A DNA stretch of 64,000 nt from a virus. Of the stretch, positions 2,414 to 53,631 are shown one piece after another. Location of the stretch: positions 64,001-128,000 of IMG/VR virus record IMGVR_UViG_3300045988_119718, one strand, 5' to 3'. Made by a program: the position numbers and the translations under genes. The stretch's first letter is position 1. Every line of letters begins with the position of its first letter. Below the pieces are notes generated by a model. That model had not been told where the DNA came from. It was given only the letters and a program-made list of their open reading frames with translations, and searched no databases.

Positions 2414-3454
2414 CTATTTCCCTTCTTCATAAATATTATATTTAACTGGTGAACCAGCAGCCTTTTTATGACCACCACCACCATAGGATCTTGCGATCTC
2501 ACTTGCATCTACATTTTCTTTAGCTGTATAGAAGGATACTGTATAACCATCGGAATCTTTGTTCTTTCTAATGAGAGAAACAAAGTCAAAATCATTTATA
2601 TGATTTCCGAATACGGTAGAATTTCCGCTACCATACATATAACAGCAGTTATAAACGTTACCGTTAAAGCTAAAAGTAGTAGGTTTAGCAAACGCTCTAT
2701 ATCTAATTTCATTTACAATCACCGATTCATCATAAAATTCTTTACCAAATTTAAGGGCTTTATCTAAATAATCCCTATTGCAAAGCAATTCAGTTACCAT
2801 ATCAGAACCAATGTATAACTGATTGGAACGCAGAGTAAAGTTATAAATAGACAAGCAATCTTCTCTATCTTTAATACTAAGGAATCCAAATCTATCGTAT
2901 CTATCAATCAATCCAATAGCTTTTTCATTGACTGAATCTGCAAATGTAGCACCATAAGAATTTACACAATCTTTAAAGATATTGTAGCAAAGTCCTACAC
3001 CTGCATTCTTAACACAGATATGCATTCCCAAAGATCTATCATAAATCTTATTCTTATAGAATTTATAATTAGAATCGATTTCTCTCAATGTAGTGAGATG
3101 ATGGTCAATAATGAAAGCACTATTTGCATTTTTCAAAATAGCTTTAATATCATTCATCTTAAGAGAAAGGTCTACTACAATTACATTGCTACCTTTCTTG
3201 ATATACGAAGAAAAATCAAACTGTCTTTCATAGTTATATGGTACGCATGTAATAGAAATTTTAGTATTACCAATAAACTCTTTAATAGCTTTAATTACAA
3301 TCTGAGCAGAAAAGATTCCGTCTGCATCTACATGATGAATGAGGACTAACGGTTTAGTAGAGCCTTCTTGATATTCTTTAAAAATACCAAATTCTAAAGC
3401 ACTATCATGAGACTTGAAATAACGGTCTTTTTCTGCTTTAATAACGATTGCCAT
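2414..3454 (-). CDS. DHH/DHHA1-family phosphoesterase (NrnA/RecJ-like nanoRNase / pAp phosphatase-like)
   Basis: Motifs HHVDADGIFS (DxD), IIDHH (DHH) and C-terminal GGGHKKAAG (the DHHA1 GGGH motif). Confidence 0.75.
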   Translation of the reverse strand: MAIVIKAEKDRYFKSHDSALEFGIFKEYQEGSTKPLVLIHHVDADGIFSAQIVIKAIKEFIGNTKISITCVPYNYERQFDFSSYIKKGSNVIVVDLSLKMNDIKAILKNANSAFIIDHHLTTLREIDSNYKFYKNKIYDRSLGMHICVKNAGVGLCYNIFKDCVNSYGATFADSVNEKAIGLIDRYDRFGFLSIKDREDCLSIYNFTLRSNQLYIGSDMVTELLCNRDYLDKALKFGKEFYDESVIVNEIRYRAFAKPTTFSFNGNVYNCCYMYGSGNSTVFGNHINDFDFVSLIRKNKDSDGYTVSFYTAKENVDASEIARSYGGGGHKKAAGSPVKYNIYEEGK

Positions 3455-3625
3455 TTTACTTCCTCCAATTAAATATAATTACTAAATATAATAGTAGTAA
3501 TGGATTGTTTCTAATATACTTATTTTTAATACCTATAGAATAGGATTACAAAAAATAAAGATAGAATTTATATTATCCCTAATAGGAATAGAAGTATACG
3601 TAATCTTATTATGGAAGATAAAAAA

Positions 3626-3658
3626 TAAAGGGCGGTCATAAGACCACCCTTTATTTTG
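3626..3658. terminator. stem-loop AAAGGGCGGTC-ATAA-GACCACCCTTT flanked by A/T runs
   Basis: Downstream of the minus gene 3683-5314. Confidence 0.55.
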
Positions 3659-3682
3659 CTTATTCATTTTTGAAATGAATAA

Positions 3683-5314
3683 TTAATGCTTAGGGAAAAC
3701 TACAGGATTGTAGATTCCATCGAAACCTCTAATCGTAGAGTTGAGGTCAGTTACATTTTTGTACAGCTGGCACTCTGGGTTGTACTTGCGAATAGATTTG
3801 AATACTTCACCAACTCTATTCTTTTCATCTTCATCTGAATCCGAGTTATTAACAACCCAGTTTACAATATCAGACAAGAAGATAGCTTTCTTAGCATCGT
3901 AAACAACCTTATCAAAGTCAGTGGATGGAGTTGGGATAGAAACTGGTTTGGGTTCTTCCTTTACCACTTCTTTTACCTCTGGTTCTACAACCTCCTCTTC
4001 TTCTACTGCTGGAGTGCTATTAGCATGAGTTGGGTAATCGATCTTGATTACAGTTGAAGAATTGTCAACAGGAACAAACTCTCTATTGATCAGGTTGTAT
4101 TTTCTAGCGAGATCAATGAACTCATTACTTGCACCTACAGCATTGAAAGCATTGCTGTTGATGTCATGTTTCCACCAATCAATGTATCTTTCATAAGACG
4201 GAATCAAATCAATCAGCCGATTATCGAAAATGTATTTGGCAATGATATTTTTATCAAATACCAAAACATCTTTTACTTCTTTACCGTTATGGCACAGGGT
4301 ATGCTTATCCGGCAAATACCCCATATCTTTAACACCCTCAATGAAATCTTTCAAAGAGAATGTTGCGTCTTTACGGTAGAAGAGAGCATAATACGTTTTC
4401 AGCAACCGCTTCAAACCAACAGGATTGAAAATCAACAGATTCTTTGTCTGAGTTGCACAGACTACGCTGTCGTTCACATTTTCATTGAAGAAGTAATCAA
4501 TGCCCATGTACAGCGGGAAGTACCAAATCAGATTTAACAGTACTCTGCGATAATCATCCACTTTATGCACTGGGGTGCTTACTGTTTTGTGCCCTCCGAC
4601 ATATGGATTGATATCAGTAACGATGAAATTTTCCAAATCACGATTCATACTAGAAGATTTGAGATAATAACTATTAACGTCATTCTCTTCTTCTTTGTCG
4701 AATCTAATAGCTGGTGGTTCTTCTGTTTTGGTAGAAACCACTAAAGTGATATTAGGAGCAGTATTATTAAAGGTTACACCACCCATATTTTTTGCTTTAG
4801 CATCATTAAGCAGCAGCTGTACACCGGCTCTGGTGAAAACATAGACACCAGAGATTTCTTTTGCCAGATATTCATCGACCAGTTGTGGCAGATTCTGCTT
4901 GATGAGATTTTTGATATCTCCATTGTAGTAGACTTTAGAAATTTTGAAGATTTCTTTTACGTCATCTACAGAGAAGATATCTCTGATATCATTGGTGGCA
5001 GGCTTGAAGAATCTGTTTTCTTTCTTCTTGAAATCCATGATAGACTTCTCGATATACTTGTGAATAATTCCTCTCAAAATACCGAGTCTGCCCTGTGCAG
5101 CAGCCTGTACATCATACACTCTGATGAAGCCAGAAACAAGTTCTCTGGTATTTGCTTCATCCAGATTGTAAATAACGTCAGAGAATTTCTCGATGTTTTC
5201 AACCAATGGTTTGATATCGAGATTTGCTTCTTTGCAAATAGCGTCATGAACCGAAACAAAAACCGGTACAATGTATACTTCTTTTGTAACTTTTTCAAAC
5301 AGTTCTTTACTCAT
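3683..5314 (-). CDS. hypothetical protein (543 aa) with an acidic EEEVVEPEVKEVVKEEPKP linker
   Basis: Long ORF followed by a bidirectional terminator hairpin at 3626-3658; no motif recognised. Confidence 0.5.
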   Translation of the reverse strand: MSKELFEKVTKEVYIVPVFVSVHDAICKEANLDIKPLVENIEKFSDVIYNLDEANTRELVSGFIRVYDVQAAAQGRLGILRGIIHKYIEKSIMDFKKKENRFFKPATNDIRDIFSVDDVKEIFKISKVYYNGDIKNLIKQNLPQLVDEYLAKEISGVYVFTRAGVQLLLNDAKAKNMGGVTFNNTAPNITLVVSTKTEEPPAIRFDKEEENDVNSYYLKSSSMNRDLENFIVTDINPYVGGHKTVSTPVHKVDDYRRVLLNLIWYFPLYMGIDYFFNENVNDSVVCATQTKNLLIFNPVGLKRLLKTYYALFYRKDATFSLKDFIEGVKDMGYLPDKHTLCHNGKEVKDVLVFDKNIIAKYIFDNRLIDLIPSYERYIDWWKHDINSNAFNAVGASNEFIDLARKYNLINREFVPVDNSSTVIKIDYPTHANSTPAVEEEEVVEPEVKEVVKEEPKPVSIPTPSTDFDKVVYDAKKAIFLSDIVNWVVNNSDSDEDEKNRVGEVFKSIRKYNPECQLYKNVTDLNSTIRGFDGIYNPVVFPKH

Positions 5315-7328: not shown

Positions 7329-9501
7329 AGCCTTTATAGCGTTGTACATTAGGAGGTGTAAAACTATCAAATGCTTTCATTAATTGATACAGTGATACTT
7401 TCTGGTCATTGAGAATATATCCATTAATGTCAGAATTGACAATGTATTTAGAAATTCTTTCATGACAATCTTTAAGCATATTCTGATTAAATACTGCCAT
7501 TTGAATTTCATCACCAACTAATCCATCAAGTACTAAAATATTATTCTTATTATCTACTTGAATGTACTTATTTACTTTAGCTACAACTTTCTTAATTTGA
7601 TTATACTTGTACCCATTAAGAATCATGCTATATACCAGCTCTAACAGATTTGGCTCAATAGCATAGTTCTGAGAGATAATACTCATATCAATCAAATAGT
7701 TGATATTATTGCAGAGAAGATCCACTACTTGAGTATCACTCATTTTCTTACCGGTAGAACTCTTAACGGTATTATACTTAATGAATCTTCTATATACATA
7801 CTGTACATATTCTCTCTTATCTGTAAAATAAGTAAGACTACCATTCTTATTCTTAATAGAATACAATGGTGGTACAGCCGCATATACTCTACCAGCTTCT
7901 ACAAGTGGTCTATAATAAATCAAAAACATTTTTAACAGTAAACTTCTGATATGCAAGCCATCTACATCTGCATCTCCTAAGAATATAATCTTATCGAATT
8001 TGCATTTATTAGGATCACATCTTCTACCTTCTCCACAATCAAGAATTGTATAAATAGCTTTGCATTCTTCATTCTTAAAGAAGTCTGCTTTAGAACAAGT
8101 CATAGCATTCTTTACTTTACCTCTAAGAGGCATTAAACCCTGCTTAGTAGGATCACATGCTTCACGACAAGTACTCATAGCAGAATCCCCTTCTACCAGA
8201 ATCAATTCAAGATTAGTTCTTCCAGAAGGTTTTTGATATTTAGAAGGTAATCCAGTCAATGTAGATACATTGCTTTTAAGCATTACTATCTTTTCTTTAT
8301 TTGTTTTTAAACGCAGATTGCCAACAGATTTGAAGAAATTACATAGACGCTGTAATTCATTTGAATGTGATTTGCACCATTGGTCTAGACCTACAGTCAC
8401 AAGTTCTTTAATAAATGGAATTGAATCCGTATTACTAAAGATTTCTTTAGCCTGTCCTGAAAACATTGGTTCAATATGCATAATTGCTACCGCTGCTTTA
8501 AGACCAGCTTTAATATCATTATTGATGATTGTCAAATTAGTTTTCTTATTAAGAAAAATCTTATTCATATAATTTCTAAAATAAGTACATAATGCATCAA
8601 TAAATGCTTGTGAGTGTGCAGAGTCTGCACTAATAGTCGGACACATATTAGCAAATGAATAAACAACTTCTTGTTCATCAATACCATTAGCATCATACGT
8701 GAAGGCAATATCAGCTTTCATTCTATCATTACCACCACTAAATGTAATTGGTGGAATAAGTGCTTGATATTTGTCTTTCAGTAAAAAGGTTGAGATACCA
8801 ATCTCGTTTACATACCTTTCATTAAAAACATTTTTACCACTTCTAATACCATGAAAATTAATTACAGCTCCAATTTTCATTAATGGCAATAGAGTACTAA
8901 TAAGAGCATTTACATCTTCACAAGAAGTTGTAATAGTTCCCATAATAGTTGTATCAGGAATAAATGAAACTCTAGTACCCTGCCAGTTATCTGTATTAGG
9001 GCATTTCTTTGGTTCTTTTAATATTGGTTTACCTTCTCTAAATTCAATATATCTACCTTCTGGTTTACCAGTAGGAGAGTACTGAGCACATAAATAAGAT
9101 ACACCAATAAATACTGAAGATAATGCGTTAGTAGCTTTACTACCTACACCATGTCTACCTGAACTGAATTCACCTTTCTTCTTTTTATAGTTAGATGATG
9201 TATGTTCAGAAGAAAAGATTCTTATCATATCTTTAAATGGTAAACCTCTACCATTATCCACACATGTAAATTCTTTACTATCTTCATTATAGGTAATCCA
9301 AATTTCTGTAGCTGGAGATTCCTGTTTCTCTACTTCATCCATAGAGTTCTGTAGAATCTCTCGTATCATATTGATATGACCACGATTACCTAGATAGCCA
9401 ATAAACTGAGTTGGAGTTCTTCTAACTGCATCAGAGAAATTACTTAAAGTTTTAATTTCATTGCCATATTCATTAATGGCTTTTTTAAAGTCAATACTCA
9501 A
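7329..9501 (-). CDS. type II topoisomerase large (GyrB-like) subunit, exon 1 (ATPase + Toprim)
   Basis: GHKL ATPase motifs ILQNSMDE and HGVGSKATNALSS. Toprim LILVEGDSAM. FLGDADVDGLHIRSLLL resembles GyrB PDADVDGSHIRTLLL. Ends ...VQRYKGL followed by VNEA-stop, which is read from the intron. Confidence 0.8.
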
Positions 9502-9578
9502 TTCTATCTCCTCCTTTACTCAATAGTTTTCTTACATTCAAAAAATAATTTAAAGTAATTTTTGTATGCTTATAAAAC

Positions 9579-9604
9579 AAGAGTAGGATTTAAATCCTAC
9601 TCTT
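9579..9604. terminator. stem-loop AAGAGTAGGATT-TAA-ATCCTACTCTT
   Basis: 11-bp perfect stem between genes. Confidence 0.55.
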
Positions 9605-9641
9605 ATCTATAAGCTAGCTTTAAATTATTTTATTTTATTTA

Positions 9642-10616
9642 TTAAGCTTCAAATTTAACTGGCTGAGTGCCTACATTAACATTGGTTGTATTTGTAGGGC
9701 CATTGTTTGCAGCTGGTGCAGTGGTTGGCTGTACAGCTACTCCGCTACCAATCGGGTTAGCTGCTGCGGAATAAGCTGGAGCTGCCTGCTGAACTGCTGG
9801 ATTATATCCCTGCTGCTGGAAGGACTGAACAGGTGGCTGCTGATACTGAATCTGTCCCTGAGCCTGAGTTGGCTGAGGATAGCCATAAGCTGGAGCCTGA
9901 GTCATACCTGGAATACCCTGCATACCACCCTGCGGATACATCGGCTGATTCTGCTGCATCTGAGGATTCATTACAGGAGTTGGCTGCTGGAATCCCTGAT
10001 TGTAATATGGCTGTGCCTGATAACCGCCCATATTATAACCATAACCACCATTATCAAATCCTGGAATACCTGCACCAGCGGTAAGATTCATATAAGTGCT
10101 CGACGGAGCATAGTAATTGTTTCCATAGAATTCATTACCCTGCGGCATAGCGGACTTCATATAATTACCGGCTACTCTAAACATATGCGGAAGCTGTTTA
10201 ATAATATTGATTACTGGATAAACACCTGCAAGTTCTGGAGTTGCCTGACCATAATAAGTCTTAATAGACTGAAGTACATCATTAACTTTTTCGCAAGCAG
10301 TATCTACTGCCTGAGTTTCTTCCGGATCTACAAGTGTAAATTCTTCACCACAGATATCACATTTAAATCTACCATCACCGATTGGATGTGCAGTAATCTG
10401 ACCTTTCTGTTTATGGGTGCAGATTGCTCTTAGATTTTCTTCATCGGTTGGAGCTTTAAAGAAATATGTAGATGGCTGACCACCTTTCTGACGAAGGCGT
10501 GCAATCTGTTCATCATTAAGCAGATTGTTCATTTCCATTACTGGCTGCTGCATTGGCTGCATCGGGTTATTAATAGCACCGAATGCTGGATTAAATCCGT
10601 TGTTGAACTGGTTCAT
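9642..10616 (-). CDS. zinc-ribbon protein with a long Q/N/Y/G/P-rich low-complexity (prion-like) C-terminal region
   Basis: CTHKQKG...FKCDICGEE zinc ribbon. The last about 200 aa are QPYYNQGFQQP / PQGGMQGIPG repeats. Locally GC-elevated. Terminator hairpin at 9579-9604. Confidence 0.55.
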   Translation of the reverse strand: MNQFNNGFNPAFGAINNPMQPMQQPVMEMNNLLNDEQIARLRQKGGQPSTYFFKAPTDEENLRAICTHKQKGQITAHPIGDGRFKCDICGEEFTLVDPEETQAVDTACEKVNDVLQSIKTYYGQATPELAGVYPVINIIKQLPHMFRVAGNYMKSAMPQGNEFYGNNYYAPSSTYMNLTAGAGIPGFDNGGYGYNMGGYQAQPYYNQGFQQPTPVMNPQMQQNQPMYPQGGMQGIPGMTQAPAYGYPQPTQAQGQIQYQQPPVQSFQQQGYNPAVQQAAPAYSAAANPIGSGVAVQPTTAPAANNGPTNTTNVNVGTQPVKFEA

Positions 10617-10726
10617 AGTTATTTCCTCCTAAGAAATTAAAATAATAAAATATGTATAAAATATTTTGAGTTTATATCAAACTCATTAATATATTATATC
10701 GTTGATTTTTCATTTAAACTTTAAAA

Positions 10727-11221
10727 TTATTTGTACGGGTATTGCTGTCTATCATTATAGTTAGAATCTCTAGATGCGTTAGTGTTATTAATGTAGTTAT
10801 TAATAATTAATGCTTTCAATCTATCATCAAGTTCTTTCTTTTCTCCATCATGATAGTTATATGCTTTAAATGAACTAAAGTTATTAAGCAGTTTTCTAAT
10901 AGCTTCTTCATTCAGGCACATTTTAATTTCCTGAATTTCGCCATAATCAAATGCGGAAATGCAAGCTGGTACATTTACTTTAGATCTACCAATCATAGAT
11001 GGTACAGTATTTCTAAGCTGATTAAAATGGAAGTAATAGCAAATACCATTTTCATCATCCCAAAATAATTCTTGATTTCTTTCATCTACCCATGCATCAT
11101 TATCCAATTTAAGAATAATATTAATAGAGTATTCTTTTTTATCTTCAGAGCTAACCAGCTTGATAGATTTAAAAAGGTCTCTAATATGAATAACTGTTTC
11201 TTTTTCCATTTCGCACCTCAT
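10727..11221 (-). CDS. hypothetical protein (164 aa)
   Basis: ORF flanked by hairpins. Confidence 0.45.
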   Translation of the reverse strand: MRCEMEKETVIHIRDLFKSIKLVSSEDKKEYSINIILKLDNDAWVDERNQELFWDDENGICYYFHFNQLRNTVPSMIGRSKVNVPACISAFDYGEIQEIKMCLNEEAIRKLLNNFSSFKAYNYHDGEKKELDDRLKALIINNYINNTNASRDSNYNDRQQYPYK

Positions 11222-37228: not shown

Positions 37229-37240
37229 TAAAAAATAAAA

Positions 37241-37279
37241 TATATTCTAGATAGCTCATATGAGCTATCTAGAATATAT
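37241..37279. terminator. bidirectional stem-loop terminator
   Basis: TATATTCTAGATAGCTCATATGAGCTATCTAGAATATA lies between convergent genes. Confidence 0.6.
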
Positions 37280-37762: not shown

Positions 37763-38311
37763 TTAATCGTATTCTCGCGATAGATCTAATCTTTTAAGAT
37801 CAATACAATAAATCTGATTTTTATCTACACTTTTATCTAAAAAATAGTATAAAGATTTATTATCAATATTTAATTGAAACTCATTATTATTTTGTAATTC
37901 ACTCATCAGTTTATCCTTATCAATATATTCACTTATATTTTTGAAGCATTTAGATGATACAATATAATCAACTAGATCTCCCCAATTTTTAAAATTGCTT
38001 TCATAAATTATATTATTATTAGTATTTATATTTAAAACACCAATTATGCTTTCACAGTTATATTTGTTTACTAGTTCTTTATGGATAAAATAAAAATCTG
38101 ATAATACAAATAATCTGATGGCATCAAAACTGTTCATACACTCTAATCGCTTAATTAACTCAAAAAAGCATTCATAATTATTACTATATACAAACGATTC
38201 TATATTGCATTTTATAGTTTTATCTTTATCCTCATTAGTAATATATAGAGTATTTGGTAAACCTACATCATAATCGCCTGTTTTGATATGCAACCCATTC
38301 ATAAAATGCAA
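37763..38311 (-). CDS. hypothetical protein (182 aa; TTG start, or ATG a few codons downstream)
   Basis: ORF. Confidence 0.45.
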   Translation of the reverse strand: MHFMNGLHIKTGDYDVGLPNTLYITNEDKDKTIKCNIESFVYSNNYECFFELIKRLECMNSFDAIRLFVLSDFYFIHKELVNKYNCESIIGVLNINTNNNIIYESNFKNWGDLVDYIVSSKCFKNISEYIDKDKLMSELQNNNEFQLNIDNKSLYYFLDKSVDKNQIYCIDLKRLDLSREYD

Positions 38312-38319
38312 ATCAATAT

Positions 38320-38418
38320 TTATGATGTTATTTTTGCCTTCATCGGTATTAACTTGAGATTTTTAGCAAAAACCTTAGCTGCGATTTCCCAATGTCCTTC
38401 TTGAAAAGTAGGAATCAT
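38320..38418 (-). CDS. small protein (32 aa) MIPTFQEGHWEIAAKVFAKNLKLIPMKAKITS
   Basis: Strong RBS AAGGAGGG 8 nt upstream of the ATG at 38418. Confidence 0.35.
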   Translation of the reverse strand: MIPTFQEGHWEIAAKVFAKNLKLIPMKAKITS

Positions 38419-38510
38419 TATAAACCCTCCTTTATAAAATAATAATATATATGAATAGCAATATTGCTATTCATATATATTATATGCAAATGAAAAAATA
38501 TTTTAAGAAA

Positions 38511-38960
38511 CTATTCTACAATGTACCAATCCTTAGACAACAAATCTGCTTGAGATGCTAACCATCCTAACTGTACTCCAGAAGTACCTACAAAAGCAAT
38601 TACTTTATTACCAGAAGTATCATGCTTAGCATTAATAAGATTACCATTACCATCGATATAGCTTGCATTATGTACTAATTCAATATACTGATTCTTGCCG
38701 TTCCATGCTTTTCTAGCACAACGTTCACCTACTTCAAGAGCAGTAATTGCTTCTCCAATACTCATACCAGTAGTTTTATCTTTTAAAGGAGTATAAAGTT
38801 CTTTAAAAATATCTGGCTTACATGGATACTGTTCTCCTTTAATACCTGTAATAATATAATCCCCTACACTAGCTTTCATATCTCCTTCTAATGTATGAAT
38901 AATCTTTTCTTCAAAAGTCTGATATGCTTCAATAATAAATGGTTTCTTTTGATATTTCAT
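38511..38960 (-). CDS. DUF2829-domain protein (Tad2-like?) with N-terminal extension
   Basis: GMSIGEAITALEVGERCARKAWNGKNQYIEL ... WLASQADLLSKDWYIVE fits the DUF2829 consensus (tFgeAleaLkqGkkvaRkgWngkg ... W.psq.DlLaeDWeiv). Confidence 0.55.
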   Translation of the reverse strand: MKYQKKPFIIEAYQTFEEKIIHTLEGDMKASVGDYIITGIKGEQYPCKPDIFKELYTPLKDKTTGMSIGEAITALEVGERCARKAWNGKNQYIELVHNASYIDGNGNLINAKHDTSGNKVIAFVGTSGVQLGWLASQADLLSKDWYIVE

Positions 38961-38962
38961 GA

Positions 38963-40060
38963 TTAAACTCCTTTTGATACAATATCTTTCATAATCTTAT
39001 ATACTGTATTAGTAATTCTCTTAGTGCATTTATCACTCCTTTCAGATAATGTAGGAATATTTGAAATCATATACAAATTCATATTGATGAAATATGGTTC
39101 TACTACATCACCTGTAGATAAATCCATTGTATTAGAAGCTAAAGATAATAATACTACGATAGATCTAGAAAATCTATGGTCTTTATCATTCTTAATAATC
39201 CATTCAAATATATCTTTATCTTCAGGCTTATTCTTAGCCAATAAACCAATAATTAAAGAAGTATACAATGGAATATTATCACAATTTGTAGTTTTAGATT
39301 CTTTATCTGCAACGTCTTGTTTTAAATGATGCCTAATAAGCATATTAACTCTAGATACATGTCTCTTATATCTCTTATCAGAACATTCTTTAATAAGTTT
39401 ACTAAGAGTTATCTTTTTGACTTGTTCAATGAGAGATTCTAAAGTTAAAGCTCTCTTATAAGCTTCTCTACCAATAGAATATTCATTCTTTTCTTTTTCT
39501 TCCAAAAATTCCAAGTCTTCAGTAATACCAAATAAATCATTGTTATGATTAAACCAAGTTCTAAGAATTTCATCAGTATCTACATCGGTGGAAATATCTT
39601 TTACTTTATTAGCAAATTCCATGTTTTCATACATCATATAGGTACTATAAGCTCTAAATAAGATATAAGACTTAATAGCTTTATTTCTTTCTTTCTTATC
39701 TTTAATATCAGAAATATTAAGTTCTTCAGCAAGTATCTTAGCTAAGAAATCTTTATCAATATAATTTTCTACATCTAACTTATCTTCTTTATCATATTCT
39801 AGTTCTCTAGCAATTTTATAAACCTTAATGTCATCTTCGGTAGCTTCTACTTCTTTTAATTGCTCATCACTTAATTCTGGAATAGTAAAGTTTTCAATAT
39901 CTTTTTCAGTTAATGTTTTCTTAATAAGTTCATCAATTTCATCAGCATATTGAATTTTAACATCTTCTATTTCTTTATTACCCGCTTCAATAACATCTTT
40001 AATAGATTTGGTTTTAGTTACTTCTTCTTCCATAATAGTCTCCTTATAACTGTTTATCAA
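38963..40060 (-). CDS. hypothetical acidic protein (365 aa)
   Basis: ORF; rich in E/K/D. Confidence 0.45.
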   Translation of the reverse strand: MINSYKETIMEEEVTKTKSIKDVIEAGNKEIEDVKIQYADEIDELIKKTLTEKDIENFTIPELSDEQLKEVEATEDDIKVYKIARELEYDKEDKLDVENYIDKDFLAKILAEELNISDIKDKKERNKAIKSYILFRAYSTYMMYENMEFANKVKDISTDVDTDEILRTWFNHNNDLFGITEDLEFLEEKEKNEYSIGREAYKRALTLESLIEQVKKITLSKLIKECSDKRYKRHVSRVNMLIRHHLKQDVADKESKTTNCDNIPLYTSLIIGLLAKNKPEDKDIFEWIIKNDKDHRFSRSIVVLLSLASNTMDLSTGDVVEPYFINMNLYMISNIPTLSERSDKCTKRITNTVYKIMKDIVSKGV

Positions 40061-40856
40061 AAATATTAGCTTTATTTATGGTGAAATTCTTTTGTAATTC
40101 CATTTTTACAGAGTTTACTAAGGATGGTGAAATTAAATCATTAGTAAGAATTGGTAGAATTAAAATTCTAAATAAATCAGCGGATGAATCAATATACTGA
40201 AGAAGATAATTCATTCTTACAATTTCATCAGCTGAAGTATAGATATAACTTAATGTAGTTCTAGAATCAAAATCTAACGCTGTAATAAAATCAATACAAG
40301 AATACAATTTAGCACTAATAATGGCTAAAGTATCATTAGAATAATATTGTCTATTATACATAGTAGATATATCTTTAGATTTCTTGTTCTTAATAAGATC
40401 TAATTGATTATAGATAAAATCTTTCTGATTTACAATAAAATTATATAAGAACTTGAATACATATTCATTATAATTAGAAATAAACAAATCAAAGATAATA
40501 GAGGCTAAATATCTTATGTCTACAGAATCTGTATCTTCAATAGTAAACTGAACTCCAGAATTATTAGAAATTCTACTAATAATTTCTAAATAAGTTTTAT
40601 TTCTAGTATAAATAATATTGTCTTTATCAGAAGGAAATTGATCTAATAGTTGTTTGAATGAATACTCTAATTCATCTATAAAATTAGGCTTAGAGATTAA
40701 AGAAAAAGAATTATATCTTTCTCTCATAAGATCATCAACCACATCATAAGTATATGATGAATTAAAATTCGACAGAATAGTAGACAGCTCGCCTTCTGCT
40801 ACTAATGAATATGCTTTATCGACACCATTGACTTCCATAATAAACCTCCATGCCAT
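40044..40856 (-). CDS. hypothetical protein (270 aa)
   Basis: ORF. Confidence 0.45.
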   Translation of the reverse strand: MAWRFIMEVNGVDKAYSLVAEGELSTILSNFNSSYTYDVVDDLMRERYNSFSLISKPNFIDELEYSFKQLLDQFPSDKDNIIYTRNKTYLEIISRISNNSGVQFTIEDTDSVDIRYLASIIFDLFISNYNEYVFKFLYNFIVNQKDFIYNQLDLIKNKKSKDISTMYNRQYYSNDTLAIISAKLYSCIDFITALDFDSRTTLSYIYTSADEIVRMNYLLQYIDSSADLFRILILPILTNDLISPSLVNSVKMELQKNFTINKANIFDKQL

Positions 40857-40940
40857 GTAAAGAAATCCTTCCCATTATAATATAGTAAAATAATGAATTA
40901 AAATGAATATAGAGATACCTCTATATGAGGTATCTCTAAT

Positions 40941-43220
40941 TTATCTTTCACCTTTAAAATTTTTAAAATTCATGTTTTTAGCTATTTGCTTCTTAGCTAT
41001 TTCCTCTGGGTCTTCTCCAAAGTTAGTAAACACTGAGTCTGGTATTTTAAACTTGTTAGCTTTATTAGTGGATATTAATTGTTCCTCTGGAATCTGAGAA
41101 TATTCAGCATATGCTTTTCTTACTGCTTTATTTTGAATCATATCCATAAGCATTTGTTCTTCTTGATTTCTTTGTTTTTTCATAAACTCAGAGAACATAG
41201 TACCCATACCAATCTTTAAAGTTTTTAAACACTCATCTACTTCTTTTCTAGTACTGTTTTCATCTTCTATAGGAATTTTAAACTCTTCTACTATTTCAGT
41301 GTACTTTTGTTCTAGGTCTTTACCTATATTATCATCAACAGAATCTTCTGTTTTAATTACACCTTTATCAATATTAAAGTTTTCTTTTAAATACTTACCT
41401 TCATACCAAACATATAATGCCATTAAATATGAGAATACTAAATCATCGTGAGAATTATCAGAGTGTTCTACTTTACCATTTTTCTTAACTACCATTTTAG
41501 ATAGTTCATCATACATAGTAGGAGAAGGCATTTTATCTTTATGCCTTTCCATTCTTTCTCTAAGTATTTCTATAAGTAAATCACGAGAACCTTTAGATGA
41601 ATCTAATCCATATACTTTAGTTTTTCTCTTTACTCTAATTGGTCTTCCTAATTCATCTGAAGTTTCTTCCATTACTCTTTCTTTGATTTCATAATAAAGA
41701 TTATCTTTAATTCCACCTGGTTCTTTTAATTTAGCAATAAGAGATGCTCCAAATCCTCCATTACGCTCGATATTTACTACCGCATTAGGCATCATTGCTT
41801 TAACCATCCAGATTAAAGTTCTTGCTAAATCAGGTATAGTCATATAGTTGCATTTTAAACCAGCGATAAATTGTGTAGTTTTAGAATCTATTACAGATAT
41901 TGCAGTATAGTCTCGTCTATATCCACCAGATACATCGACACCTATTATAGGAGGATTTATAGGTAACCCTGTAATAGATAATGGTATAGTATTATATATT
42001 TTGAATGGGTATTTATTTAATATTAATACTTCTCTTATAGGCTCATGTATCATACCTCTAAGAGTTTCTAAATCATCTTGACTAAATGGAGAATTTTCTG
42101 GAGTATCTATCCATTCGAGTAAAATTTCTCGACGTATATCTACCATCTTCCACATCATGTTTTTACATTGATCATAGAACCATTTTTCTCCCAATCCAAG
42201 TTGTTTATAAGAATACTTTATATATACAAATATGGAATTCATATTATTATTTATGATATCCATAATTTGTTCGTAAGTTAAGTCATACCATCGTTCATTA
42301 AATGGTGTAGCATTTTGTATCATATCATACGCAAATTGACCTTCAAAAGTAGACAATCTGCCTGGGGTAGTAGTTATAGTAATACCATATGGTACATTAG
42401 CTCTTTTAGCATTAATAAATGCTTTATTTAATGCTGGCATAGAGTTTACATAGATAGTAGAGTTAAATGCCGTGAATGCCCATTCGTCAGCCCACCACAT
42501 AGTAATGGTTTGACCTCTTAATAGGTTAGCTGCTGCTGTTTCATTTCTAGCACCAGGAACAGTTCTAATGATATTATGGTTTACTGGATGCTGTATAGTC
42601 TGTACAGTAGAAGGTAATTTCTTCTTTTTACCATTTATCACAGAGAACTCTTGAGATAATTGTAACCATGATGGTAATAAATCTCTAACAGCTTTAAATG
42701 ATTCCAAGTTTCGCTTAGCATCTTGATTCTGCTTATTCATAAATGTAATATTAGAATTAGCAGAAGCAAAGTTATATACATAAAGATATCTTACTATCGC
42801 TGCCATGGTTTTACCAACCTGACGAGGCATTTCAAAAAATAAATTCATATTATACATAGAGCAAAAATTAAAGGCTAAGTTGCCTCTATTAAGCTCATAT
42901 CTAACACCTCTAGGGTTACCATTAGCAGTTACTCTAACTACTTCTCTTAAGAAATACCAATAGTTTCTCTGTACTTCTCTATATATCTTCATTTTCATTT
43001 CCAAAGATAAGCTAGGATCATATGGATCTACACCAGCTAAATCTGGGTCAAATAAAGACAGCATAAATTTATTATTCTTAATACCAATACTCTTCAAATA
43101 ATAATGCATATTAATAAATGACTTATTAGCTGTAGACATTTGGTAATATATCTTTTGGGGAGCATATTGTATTTGCCTAGGTTGTTGCTGAGCAATTAAA
43201 TTAGATATTAAATCCGCCAA
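40941..43220 (-). CDS. terL: terminase large subunit (T4 gp17-like ATPase + nuclease)
   Basis: Walker A MPRQVGKT (cf. gp17 SRQLGKT), Walker B MWWADEWAF, and C-terminal RNaseH-like nuclease region IIGVDVSGGYRRDYTAISVID. Confidence 0.7.
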   Translation of the reverse strand: MADLISNLIAQQQPRQIQYAPQKIYYQMSTANKSFINMHYYLKSIGIKNNKFMLSLFDPDLAGVDPYDPSLSLEMKMKIYREVQRNYWYFLREVVRVTANGNPRGVRYELNRGNLAFNFCSMYNMNLFFEMPRQVGKTMAAIVRYLYVYNFASANSNITFMNKQNQDAKRNLESFKAVRDLLPSWLQLSQEFSVINGKKKKLPSTVQTIQHPVNHNIIRTVPGARNETAAANLLRGQTITMWWADEWAFTAFNSTIYVNSMPALNKAFINAKRANVPYGITITTTPGRLSTFEGQFAYDMIQNATPFNERWYDLTYEQIMDIINNNMNSIFVYIKYSYKQLGLGEKWFYDQCKNMMWKMVDIRREILLEWIDTPENSPFSQDDLETLRGMIHEPIREVLILNKYPFKIYNTIPLSITGLPINPPIIGVDVSGGYRRDYTAISVIDSKTTQFIAGLKCNYMTIPDLARTLIWMVKAMMPNAVVNIERNGGFGASLIAKLKEPGGIKDNLYYEIKERVMEETSDELGRPIRVKRKTKVYGLDSSKGSRDLLIEILRERMERHKDKMPSPTMYDELSKMVVKKNGKVEHSDNSHDDLVFSYLMALYVWYEGKYLKENFNIDKGVIKTEDSVDDNIGKDLEQKYTEIVEEFKIPIEDENSTRKEVDECLKTLKIGMGTMFSEFMKKQRNQEEQMLMDMIQNKAVRKAYAEYSQIPEEQLISTNKANKFKIPDSVFTNFGEDPEEIAKKQIAKNMNFKNFKGER

Positions 43221-44605: not shown

Positions 44606-45097
44606 TTATTCTAAAACACCATTATAGCAATACTCTTTAATACCCTTAATATAGTAATCATCCTTCACATCTAAAACTAAGAATCCATATTCTTTAAATA
44701 TTTTATCGTAGATTTCAAAGTATTTGCATTTACTAGATAAAGTAACTAAAGGCATATCTACCTTTAATTCAGTAATAGCCTTATCTATTAAAGCTCTTAT
44801 AATATCATCATACTCATTTTTGAACTTAGTATTTACCCAAATAGTGCAAATCTTTTTTTCACCTTGATAGTCTTTAATGATTAGACATCCTTTTTTAATA
44901 GTTTTTGTATCATCCATTAAAAATATAATTTTTCTTTTTCTTGAATTAACTTCAGGAATTACTTTCTCAAATAACCATTTTCTACTTTTAGGATATAATG
45001 ATACTAAAGAATTTATCATTTCTTTAGGCAAAATTTTATCTTTACCTCTTTCAGTAATTTTAATAAGTTCAACAAACAGTGTATTCTTATACTTCAT
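44606..45097 (-). CDS. hypothetical protein (163 aa)
   Basis: ORF. Confidence 0.45.
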   Translation of the reverse strand: MKYKNTLFVELIKITERGKDKILPKEMINSLVSLYPKSRKWLFEKVIPEVNSRKRKIIFLMDDTKTIKKGCLIIKDYQGEKKICTIWVNTKFKNEYDDIIRALIDKAITELKVDMPLVTLSSKCKYFEIYDKIFKEYGFLVLDVKDDYYIKGIKEYCYNGVLE

Positions 45098-46698
45098 CTC
45101 ATTCTACTCTCTCTTTCATTTTTAGTTTGTAATGCTGCCTGATAGTTTTCTTCTAGTACAGAATCATCGATGATATACTTTTCATTATCATCATCCCATA
45201 CAAACTTACTAAAATATGTTTCTTCTACAGAAGTAGCATATTTTTCAAATATAGATTTTTTGGATTCATAGCATCCTTTGCATGCATCAAATCCAATATC
45301 TACAAATTCCATATAAGTAGTATCACTATCTCTAGTTCTACCTAACGATTGTCTGGCTAATACTTTAGACTTAAATGGTTCAGCTAATACTACAGTCATT
45401 TTAAGACCTTTAATATCAATAGCTGCACCACAAGATTTAGTAGTAGATAAAATAATCATCTTATCTAATTGCTGTTCTTTGATAAACTTATTCTTCTCGA
45501 TAGAAGTATAAATACCAATATTATTACTCATATATGGATAATTAGCTACAATATAATCATAGACTATTTTAATAGCAGCATTAGTACCAATATATATTAA
45601 AGTCTTACTATTGGTACTAATAATGATTTCCATTAAGATAGTAATGATTTTAAACAAGTAGTCTTTACCTTGTTTAGTAGTAATAAAACTACAGTATTTG
45701 TTTCTATCGAATCCATATCTATTAGTACACCATCTCTGTTGACCTGGTGTAGGATGAGAGTTAAATAATACAGATACATATCTTGTATGAGGATCTGTTT
45801 CTTCATTAAATAAATCTATCTTAGGCATACATCTAAAAGTTTCTTGATATACAGCATCTTCTCCTCTATCAGATCTAGCAGGAGTAGCAGTTAGATATAA
45901 AGTCTTTCTAGTATTAGTATAGAAATCAGTCTTCCAAATATCATCAAACAATAAATGAGCTTCATCATAAATCTTTAAACCAACTCTAAGTTTCTTAAAT
46001 AATTCTGTAATCTTAGTCCAGTCTTCAGATTTACCATTTTCAGTAGCATATGCATGAATAGTTTGATGAGATGCTAAAAAGTATTTAATCTTAGAAATAT
46101 CTACCATACCATTTAAAATCATAGCAATACTAGTTCTACCAGTAATAATATAAATTTCAGATGGTTTGGTATCAGTATATTCTAAAATTCTATCTTTCCA
46201 CTGTTTAATCCACCCAGTAGAAGAAGTAATCATAATACTTCTCATACCAAAGTATGCAGATGAAAATATAGTTACAAAGGTTTTACCTGCACCAGTATTA
46301 AGATTAACTCCTAACTGAGTGAATCTAGCAGTATCAGCATATTCATCTTTACCTAAAATAAACTTAATAGCTTTAAGCTGTGTTTCATTTCTTGGTTGGT
46401 ATTTAAGATTAATCTGTAATCCATCATCATATGGATCCCATGATGTATGAAAGTTAGGAGCAGTATTAAGTTTATCCGCTAACCAAGCAATATCCATTGA
46501 TCTAGGCAAAGTAAGAATCTTATTCTTAGCATCATACCACATAGCTTTATTAGTATACTGATTTAAAGTTTTATCAAATACACTAAACATTTCTTGTACT
46601 TCAGGGCAATCATTTACTTCATAACCAATAAGTTGTATACAAGTATTATAAACCTCTATAGATACATTATGTGATAAAAACATAACTTCTCCTTTCAC
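45094..46698 (-). CDS. SF2 DEAD/DEAH-box helicase (UvsW-like)
   Basis: Motif I NTGAGKTFV, motif II IYDEAHLL, and helicase C-terminal domain features. Confidence 0.65.
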   Translation of the reverse strand: MKGEVMFLSHNVSIEVYNTCIQLIGYEVNDCPEVQEMFSVFDKTLNQYTNKAMWYDAKNKILTLPRSMDIAWLADKLNTAPNFHTSWDPYDDGLQINLKYQPRNETQLKAIKFILGKDEYADTARFTQLGVNLNTGAGKTFVTIFSSAYFGMRSIMITSSTGWIKQWKDRILEYTDTKPSEIYIITGRTSIAMILNGMVDISKIKYFLASHQTIHAYATENGKSEDWTKITELFKKLRVGLKIYDEAHLLFDDIWKTDFYTNTRKTLYLTATPARSDRGEDAVYQETFRCMPKIDLFNEETDPHTRYVSVLFNSHPTPGQQRWCTNRYGFDRNKYCSFITTKQGKDYLFKIITILMEIIISTNSKTLIYIGTNAAIKIVYDYIVANYPYMSNNIGIYTSIEKNKFIKEQQLDKMIILSTTKSCGAAIDIKGLKMTVVLAEPFKSKVLARQSLGRTRDSDTTYMEFVDIGFDACKGCYESKKSIFEKYATSVEETYFSKFVWDDDNEKYIIDDSVLEENYQAALQTKNERESRMR

Positions 46699-53577: not shown

Positions 53578-53593
53578 CAAGGAAGGGTGAAAA

Positions 53594-53631
53594 TAAAAGG
53601 TACTCATATGAGTACCTTTTATTTTTTTTTT
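53594..53631 (+). terminator. rho-independent terminator
   Basis: AAAAGGTACTCATATGAGTACCTTTT followed by T11. Confidence 0.7.

Follow-up and report, generated by a model that had tools for sequence, protein, structure and literature searches.

A Tad2-like protein with an N-terminal PGDYG-like domain, a probable sponge for the type I Thoeris signal, in an uncultured jumbo phage

Does the protein of 149 amino acids that is encoded at positions 38511 to 38960 of a 64,000-nt window of the IMG/VR virus record IMGVR_UViG_3300045988_119718 (record positions 64,001-128,000) act as a sponge for a bacterial immune signal, and what does the additional domain at its N-terminus contribute? The window denotes the whole stretch of DNA that was analysed. 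The deduced protein consists of a PGDYG-like domain followed by a Tad2-like domain that has retained the motif set for signal binding, and the sequence comparisons and a structural model suggest that it is most likely a sponge for 3'-cyclic ADP-ribose (3'cADPR) directed against type I Thoeris systems (probability about 0.7). This agrees, as far as computation reaches, with the sponge function proposed in a preliminary description of the sequence that was made without database searches. The gene and its two domains are located as follows:

38511-38960, minus strand: two-domain gene (PGDYG-like plus Tad2-like), ATG start, 149 amino acids, stop codon included (open reading frame listing)
38775-38960, minus strand: N-terminal PGDYG-like domain, amino acids 1-62 (AlphaFold2 fold, sub-threshold PF14083 match, stand-alone homologues)
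38517-38765, minus strand: Tad2-like (DUF2829) domain, amino acids 66-148 (Pfam PF11195, Foldseek, residue mapping)

The C-terminal 85 amino acids had initially been assigned to DUF2829 by eye, and the Pfam search bore this out, since PF11195 (Tad2-like, formerly DUF2829) matched amino acids 66-148 over the full profile (positions 1-73 of 73) with 66.5 bits and E=3.1e-18, the curated cut-off being 25 bits. That the DUF2829 family includes the Tad2 anti-Thoeris sponges had been stated at the outset and is confirmed by the literature (including 10.1101/2023.11.15.567273). A phmmer search of the PDB retrieved only Tad2 chains (SPO1 Gp34.65, SptTad2, HgmTad2/AcrIIA7 and ModTad2). The identity to SPO1 Tad2 was 36% over the whole domain of 84 amino acids (E=3e-14), and an identity of 36% was also found to Tad2_82 (E=3e-17), a metagenomic IMG/VR protein described by Hadary et al. 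(2025). Structural similarity to Tad2, on which the early sponge proposal depended, was assessed with AlphaFold2 and Foldseek. The monomer model, computed from an alignment with 60 homologues, reached a mean predicted local distance difference test score (pLDDT) of 87, and all 24 PDB matches at E<=0.001 were Tad2 structures, with a probability of 1.0 and target template-modelling scores of 0.59-0.81 (ModTad2 9eib; SPO1 8sme, 8smf, 8smg and 8wje; HgmTad2 8kbi and 8kbj; SptTad2 8wjd); the matches beyond these 24 had E>0.4. Profile match and predicted fold place the C-terminal domain in the Tad2 sponge family. Membership itself adds little to current knowledge; Tad2 sponges are already well described.

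The published Tad2 assembly is a homotetramer with two inter-protomer ligand pockets. SPO1 Tad2 (gp34.65; 8SME, 8SMF, 8SMG and 8WJE) contacts glycocyclic ADP-ribose (gcADPR) via W25, N26, W73 and D79, with minor or water-mediated contacts by I63, T65, D67, H71, S76 and T78 (Yirmiya et al., 10.1101/2023.05.01.538930), and the HgmTad2 mutants W21A/N22A and S90A/T92A/D93A lose binding (Li et al., 10.1101/2023.11.15.567273). The SPO1 contacts were mapped onto the two-domain protein by means of a HMMER alignment:

38703-38705, minus strand: codon of W86, corresponding to SPO1 W25, kept
38700-38702, minus strand: codon of N87, corresponding to SPO1 N26, kept
38562-38564, minus strand: codon of W133, corresponding to SPO1 W73, kept
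38544-38546, minus strand: codon of D139, corresponding to SPO1 D79, kept
S136, corresponding to SPO1 S76, kept
T126, corresponding to SPO1 T65, kept
V124, corresponding to SPO1 I63
A138, corresponding to SPO1 T78, the sole changed direct contact
G128, corresponding to SPO1 D67, not kept
gap, corresponding to SPO1 H71, not kept

The two proteins have the Pfam family, the fold and the contacts W25, N26, W73 and D79 in common, and the equivalent residues W86, N87, W133 and D139 are invariant across the 60-sequence alignment (A1), as is S136. SPO1 Tad2 differs in being a single-domain protein of 89 amino acids, to which the window protein adds an N-terminal domain of 62 amino acids, and in its loop sequence, besides the exchanges of T78 and D67 and the missing H71. 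The change from threonine to alanine at A138 does not appear disqualifying, because Tad2_82, a validated inhibitor of type I Thoeris (Hadary et al., Table S2), carries the same change in its motif GWLASQADML. The C-terminal GWLASQAD(M/L)L is common to Tad2_82 and the window protein, whereas Tad2_82 comprises a single domain of 80 amino acids with an unrelated middle loop.

The signal that might be bound was predicted by comparing motifs with published activities, a comparison that rests on a small sample of tested Tad2 proteins. The combination of WNGK with W[LV][AP]SQ[TA]D goes along with inhibition of type I Thoeris in six of six tested carriers (homologues 70, 71, 82 and 83, SPO1 Tad2 and HgmTad2), whereas MoTad2 and homologue 76, which inhibit type II Thoeris and are negative for type I, have TPSVSD or VPSSSD at the motif site (Hadary et al.). 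The motifs WNGK and WLASQAD of the two-domain protein agree with those of the six type I inhibitors, and since this motif tracks with type I inhibition in the tested homologues, the ligand is most likely 3'cADPR (1''-3' gcADPR). The segment between N87 and W133 comprises 45 amino acids, compared with 46 in SPO1 Tad2 and about 64 in HgmTad2. While SPO1 Tad2 does not bind cyclic dinucleotides, a long insertion of HgmTad2 forms a dinucleotide pocket (10.1101/2023.11.15.567273), and judging by the N87-W133 spacing this pocket-forming insertion of the cyclic-dinucleotide subtype (HgmTad2/SptTad2) is absent from the window protein. A second, CBASS-type pocket appears unlikely, because the segment is as short as in SPO1 Tad2.

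By analogy with the solved Tad2 proteins, the Tad2-like domain would assemble as a homotetramer with inter-protomer pockets lined by W86/N87 and by W133/S136/D139. These pockets would bind and sequester the ADP-ribose-derived alarm signal that bacterial TIR proteins produce, most likely the 3'cADPR of type I Thoeris, so that the Thoeris effector would never be activated. The N-terminal domain, held on a flexible linker, would most likely provide a second, independent activity outside the Tad2 pocket, and an RNA hairpin past the stop codon is expected to terminate or stabilise the transcript.

An additional N-terminal region of about 64 amino acids had already been recognised at the outset. It proved to be a real, folded domain (amino acids 1-62), while its independent and very widespread nature had been overlooked. 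AlphaFold2 predicted a confidently folded domain (pLDDT about 90-96) of five strands (11-14, 19-23, 26-30, 35-38 and 44-47) and one helix (49-55), followed by a linker to the Tad2-like domain that was modelled with lower confidence. The match to the Pfam family PF14083 ('PGDYG protein') was below threshold (17.3-17.6 bits versus a cut-off of 27) and covered only model positions 4-39 of 102, about one third, around the common GDY(I/G) motif. All 64 aligned homologues of the domain matched PF14083 at E<=1 (best E=2e-16), and close homologues reached E=1e-35. In terms of sequence, the domain is best described as a PF14083-related subfamily and not as a formal member of the family.

The nearest relatives of the N-terminal domain are mostly stand-alone proteins of 60-70 amino acids with 70-80% identity, some of which are named 'PGDYG protein' by UniProt/NCBI. 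Among 1.84 billion cluster representatives, 20,852 clusters matched a profile of the domain at E<=0.001, and 829 of 50,697 phage genomes (about 1.6%) gave a tblastn match, among them the laboratory Bacillus phages SP82G, SP8, SBSphiJ7 and Grass as well as Goe3; the hosts include Bacillus, Mycobacterium, Staphylococcus, Gordonia, Streptococcus, Acinetobacter, Vibrio and Klebsiella. Sequence searches of the PDB with the single sequence and with a profile produced only noise (TrmD, SAMHD1, E>0.5), and the fold comparison gave no PDB match at E<=0.001, the best being the Dec protein of phage L (6e3c, E=1.4). The fold comparison thus gave no support to Lockin, which had been considered as an identity of the domain. 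All fold matches in BFVD were uncharacterised viral 'PGDYG protein' entries, and a literature search for PGDYG or PF14083 found no paper. Two further candidates were rejected: neither Acb4 (PF13876) nor Sequestin (PF21825) gave a Pfam match to the domain even at E<=1, and their folds differ from five strands plus a helix, the Acb4 core being three strands flanked by helices and Sequestin being all-helical.

The PGDYG-like plus Tad2 architecture is common, as dozens of 90%-identity clusters span the whole protein, and in the 60 homologues of the alignment conservation extends over the N-terminal and C-terminal halves alike. The N-terminal domain is joined to at least three different Tad2 subclades and occurs with the short-loop clade of the window protein as well as with a long-loop clade (Latilactobacillus phage TMW 1.2272 P1, P0118). 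The Tad2 clade of the window protein is also found as a single domain (P0111, 93 amino acids), in duplicate (P0064) and, in Dorea phage DO134P1 (L008 2261-2755) and R. gnavus phage phiRg507T2_3 (L009 2330-2839), preceded by a miniature Tad2-like domain. The combination of a PGDYG-like domain with Tad2 is an undescribed architectural variant of a known family, and its subclade (…QYIEL…GNKxIAFVGTSGVQxGWLASQAD…), which is abundant among phages of the gut, was tested before only as a truncated, inactive fragment. In the assays of Hadary et al., none of the 17 Tad2 proteins carried the N-terminal domain, and Megasphaera homologues are labelled by NCBI only as 'DUF2829 domain-containing protein'.

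Some related observations concern the miniature domain, which is degenerate (…KLPSWGGYW…SDEW.IAD). The phiRg507T2_3 protein is gp19, located between holin and endolysin, and in P0085 and P0088 a PGDYG-like and a miniature Tad2-like domain both precede the Tad2 domain; multi-domain Tad2 arrays seem to be common in gut Firmicute phages. A match in Pasteurella phage Pmp11 that covered 83% of the protein was discarded as a fusion, as it consists of two adjacent genes, neither with a Tad2 domain.

To find further partners of the N-terminal domain, published sponge tables were screened with the motif YPCK(P). The domain was detected N-terminal to homologues of Lockin (Tal et al. 2025, Table S4), of Sequestin (Tal et al. 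2025, Table S1) and of Acb4/PF13876 (Chang et al. 2024, Table S3), whereas PGDYG is not mentioned in the texts of Tal et al. and Chang et al. Judged by sequence, the domain is thus an N-terminal partner of four structurally unrelated sponge families, namely Tad2, Acb4, Lockin and Sequestin, and this association constitutes the main lead of the present analysis. The situation resembles the fusions Acb4-Tad2 (Pasteurella phage Pm86) and Tad2-Sequestin (Tal et al. 2025), in which Tad2 is likewise combined with another small phage domain that occurs in free-standing form too. The partner differs, being a PGDYG-like beta domain and neither the double-stranded-RNA-binding-domain-like alpha/beta fold of Acb4 nor Sequestin. 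Published sponge-sponge fusions have dual anti-defence activity, the Acb4-Tad2 fusion blocking both Thoeris and CBASS, and one fusion pattern revealed a new sponge family, as Sequestin was discovered through its fusion to Tad2 and Acb4 (Tal et al., 10.1101/2025.07.12.664507).

HgmTad2/AcrIIA7 (151 amino acids in its native form; 8KBI-8KBM) is a further instance of an active anti-Thoeris sponge in which an additional N-terminal segment precedes Tad2, and it has the motif GWLASQ(T/A)DML in common with the window protein. Its extension is unrelated in sequence, the N-terminal domain of the window protein being without a PDB match also to the 158-amino-acid AcrIIA7 chain 9kzr, and its long insertion with the cyclic-dinucleotide pocket is missing from the window protein. 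According to published screen data, native HgmTad2 with its N-terminal extension of 47 amino acids inhibits type I Thoeris. Additions beside a Tad2 domain are compatible with function, because the extended HgmTad2 and the Acb4-Tad2 fusion are both active, but they are no guarantee of it; Tad2_73, with 158 amino acids, is inactive (Hadary et al.).

By the same guilt-by-fusion logic as for Sequestin, the sponge fusions make the PGDYG-like domain a tentative candidate for an undescribed anti-defence module, either another sponge for immune signals or a helper by which sponges are protected or targeted. If this proved true, a large new family of more than 20,000 sequence clusters would be at hand, and the proposal is directly testable with the existing panels of Thoeris, CBASS and Pycsar assays. 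A query of Pfam architectures would miss the domain, because most copies fall below the PF14083 threshold. Scanning of 88 longer representatives identified DUF551 (4), a Lar restriction-alleviation domain (1), zinc ribbons and many uncharacterised segments as further partners, and tandem copies occur in P0091 and P0241. Accordingly, the domain is a promiscuous, autonomously folding module, and given its many non-sponge partners it may be a general-purpose handle.

Several settings of the domain were recorded alongside these searches. The SPO1-like phage SP82G encodes a PGDYG-like protein of 93 amino acids (sp82g_215; L011 2845-3126) near the end of its genome, at 129.8 of 132.9 kb, where many small genes follow one another, all of them annotated as hypothetical; a Pfam scan of the neighbours of sp82g_215 gave no matches. 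In Staphylococcus phage SN8, a stand-alone gene for a PGDYG-like protein of 65 amino acids (L005 2989-3186, adjoining 3183-4021) lies between the integrase gene and a convergent gene pair annotated as 'TIR domain-containing protein' and 'DUF4231', and the layout of integrase, PGDYG-like and TIR genes recurs in several S. pseudintermedius phages (SN8, WIS42 and SP197). Giant proteins (P0240 with 3743 amino acids, P0244 with 1452 amino acids, P0242, P0249 and P0340) contain 4-30 divergent PGDYG-like copies with the repeat pattern …GDWKVTG…G..W.VKPDIF.KTY…, some of them behind N-terminal annexin-like repeats, which is an unexpected, non-phage-like setting for the domain.

The gene itself is real and conserved, and its source is, on the basis of sequence, an uncultured jumbo phage, a group in which counter-defence has been little studied. 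The 90%-identity cluster that contains the protein has 314 members on contigs reaching 230 kb, and near-identical genes were found on metagenomic contigs of 113-230 kb. The large terminase encoded in the window (40941-43220, minus strand) is 32-39% identical to those of AR9, PBS1, vB_BsuM-Goe21 and Staphylococcus S6; more distant matches belong to Pseudomonas and Erwinia jumbo phages. No close relative of the window, which has about 30% G+C, was found among sequenced phages. The surroundings of the gene comprise the following features:

38968-38971, minus strand: ribosome-binding site GGAG, 7 nt 5' of the ATG (direct reading of the sequence)
38963-40060, minus strand: upstream orphan gene, 365 amino acids, arranged end-to-start with the Tad2-like gene (open reading frame listing)
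40044-40856, minus strand: first gene of the three-gene unit, 270 amino acids, orphan (open reading frame listing)
38442-38483, minus strand: perfect 42-bp palindrome with 21-nt arms and no spacer, starting 27 nt past the stop codon of the Tad2-like gene
40910-40938, no strand assigned: terminator-like hairpin separating the large terminase gene from the three-gene unit, 12 pairs (5 G-C), T-rich tails on both strands

Translation from M1 is favoured over M28, the start used in the gene call P0016 of 122 amino acids, because GGAG stands 7 nt 5' of the ATG. The stop codon TAA of the upstream gene (38963-38965) ends 2 nt before this ATG, which suggests translational coupling of the two genes. The genes for the proteins of 270 and 365 amino acids and the Tad2-like protein would form a co-transcribed unit bounded by two hairpins, and their order is conserved in the contigs L001-L004. 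The protein of 365 amino acids had no Pfam, PHROG or PADLOC match, and for neither upstream gene was a homologue detected by tblastn in the 50,697 phage genomes.

A palindrome downstream of the gene had been reported at the outset with 34 bp at 38440-38475. Its existence and the position of the gene just upstream were confirmed, although it actually extends over 42 bp from 38442 to 38483. As RNA, the palindrome gives a stem of 19 bp closed by a loop of 4 nt, with a folding energy of about -22 to -24 kcal/mol (z = -5.2); none of 200 shuffles folded as stably, so that its stability is far beyond chance. The stem contains only 3 G-C pairs, and its tail UAUUUUAU, which is interrupted, is followed by AAGGAGGG, the ribosome-binding site of the next gene; the hairpin was nonetheless flagged by the terminator scan. 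An Rfam search of the locus returned no family and only sub-threshold hairpin noise. We infer that the hairpin is a terminator-like or 3'-end stabilising element of the Tad2-like gene.

The reading as a 3'cADPR sponge has to be weighed against several points. Two contacts that are water-mediated in SPO1 Tad2 are lost (D67 is replaced by G128, and H71 falls in the gap), the predicted template-modelling score of 0.55 leaves the relative orientation of the two domains undefined, and a tetramer would have to accommodate the 62-amino-acid domain attached to helix alpha-1. In the screen of Hadary et al., roughly half of the Tad2 homologues were inactive in heterologous assays, and the sole tested relative from the subclade, Tad2_84, was inactive as well; the latter result is uninformative for full-length members, Tad2_84 being a truncation of 60 amino acids without the W..SQ.D end. 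The genomic position, with the large terminase gene on one side, the tail-fibre gene on the other and coupling to two orphans, is not obviously that of an early or anti-defence cluster. A sponge for another or an additional signal, such as the His-ADPR of type II Thoeris, the N7-cADPR of type IV, the cUMP or cCMP of Pycsar or the cyclic dinucleotides of CBASS, appears unlikely. Each of these signals is bound by one or another Tad2 homologue (10.1101/2025.08.24.671296), a second pocket of HgmTad2 and SptTad2 accommodates cGG and cGAMP (10.1101/2023.11.15.567273), and the loop of amino acids 98-131 is specific to this subclade, for which published assays cover a truncated form, but the SQ[TA]D motif and the SPO1-like N87-W133 spacing described above argue for type I activity and against an HgmTad2-like pocket. 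It is rather improbable that the N-terminal domain holds the main function, with a host protein, a nucleic acid or another target, and that the Tad2 part is an oligomerisation scaffold without action on Thoeris. Such a role would fit the stronger conservation of the N-terminal domain compared with the Tad2 half, as seen in its stand-alone relatives, the size of its family, its fusion to many non-sponge partners (DUF551, Lar, zinc ribbons and others) and its arrays within giant proteins. The invariance of the Tad2 contact residues across the fusion family, in contrast, is unexpected of a mere scaffold, and the same Tad2 subclade exists without the N-terminal domain (P0111 and the Dorea and R. 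gnavus phage proteins). An AcrIIA7-type anti-CRISPR was suggested by sequence and fold matches to AcrIIA7/HgmTad2 (8kbi, 9kzr), a DUF2829 protein having originally been reported as a Cas9 inhibitor; this reading is very improbable and was rejected on published evidence, as inhibition of Cas9 by HgmTad2 and other Tad2 proteins was not reproduced in vitro or in vivo (Li et al., 10.1101/2023.11.15.567273), a view shared by Yirmiya et al.

The assignment of the palindrome was weighed in the same way. A protein-binding operator or a recombination site at a variable region, in place of a terminator, would be compatible with the perfect symmetry over 42 bp and with the weak U-tract 3' of the hairpin (UAUUUUAU), which counts against termination. 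In the related contig L001, moreover, two paralogous genes for BspA-like leucine-rich repeat (DUF285) proteins of 278-285 amino acids (8522-10246) are inserted directly past the conserved hairpin, and the terminase of the window resembles those of AR9 and PBS1; such phages encode their own RNA polymerases, so that other termination rules may apply. On the other side, L001 retains the stem while the central AATATT is changed to AATACC, and an RNA stem-loop fits better than a symmetric protein site because the stem is kept and the central symmetry (3+3 bases) is lost. The terminator scan also found 4 hairpins versus 0.7 expected in the scanned region, including those at 37240-37279 and 40910-40938. 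An operator or recombination site seems the poorer, though not negligible, explanation, and the hairpins at gene ends are probably transcript-end signals of this phage.

Further palindromes and hairpins of similar style occur at other gene ends in the window, including a perfect palindrome at 53590-53625, along with weaker ones. The window site that corresponds to the insertion in L001 (38419-38441) contains no BspA-like leucine-rich repeat genes, and the spot past the Tad2-like gene can be regarded as a variable region because L001 carries the insert and the window does not. The gene 3' of the hairpin (37763-38418, minus strand) is split by an indel near 38360 into open reading frames of 32 and 182 amino acids, an A-run being one base shorter (A5 in place of A6) than in the intact gene of L001 (221 amino acids, 10289-10954); this change could reflect a homopolymer sequencing error, a pseudogene or slippage.

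A scan for sigma-70 promoters detected 30 sites compared with 32.6 in shuffled sequence, and no promoter is claimed; the window contains no tRNA genes. The neighbouring genes were scanned with PADLOC, Pfam and PHROG, which identified only the large terminase, a tail fibre, a helicase, an acetyltransferase and nameless PHROG families. The acetyltransferase-like gene (phrog_13728; 44606-45097, minus strand) overlaps the start of the ResIII/DEAD helicase gene (45094-46698, minus strand), and this pair, located upstream of the terminase block, is conserved in the contigs L001 and L002.

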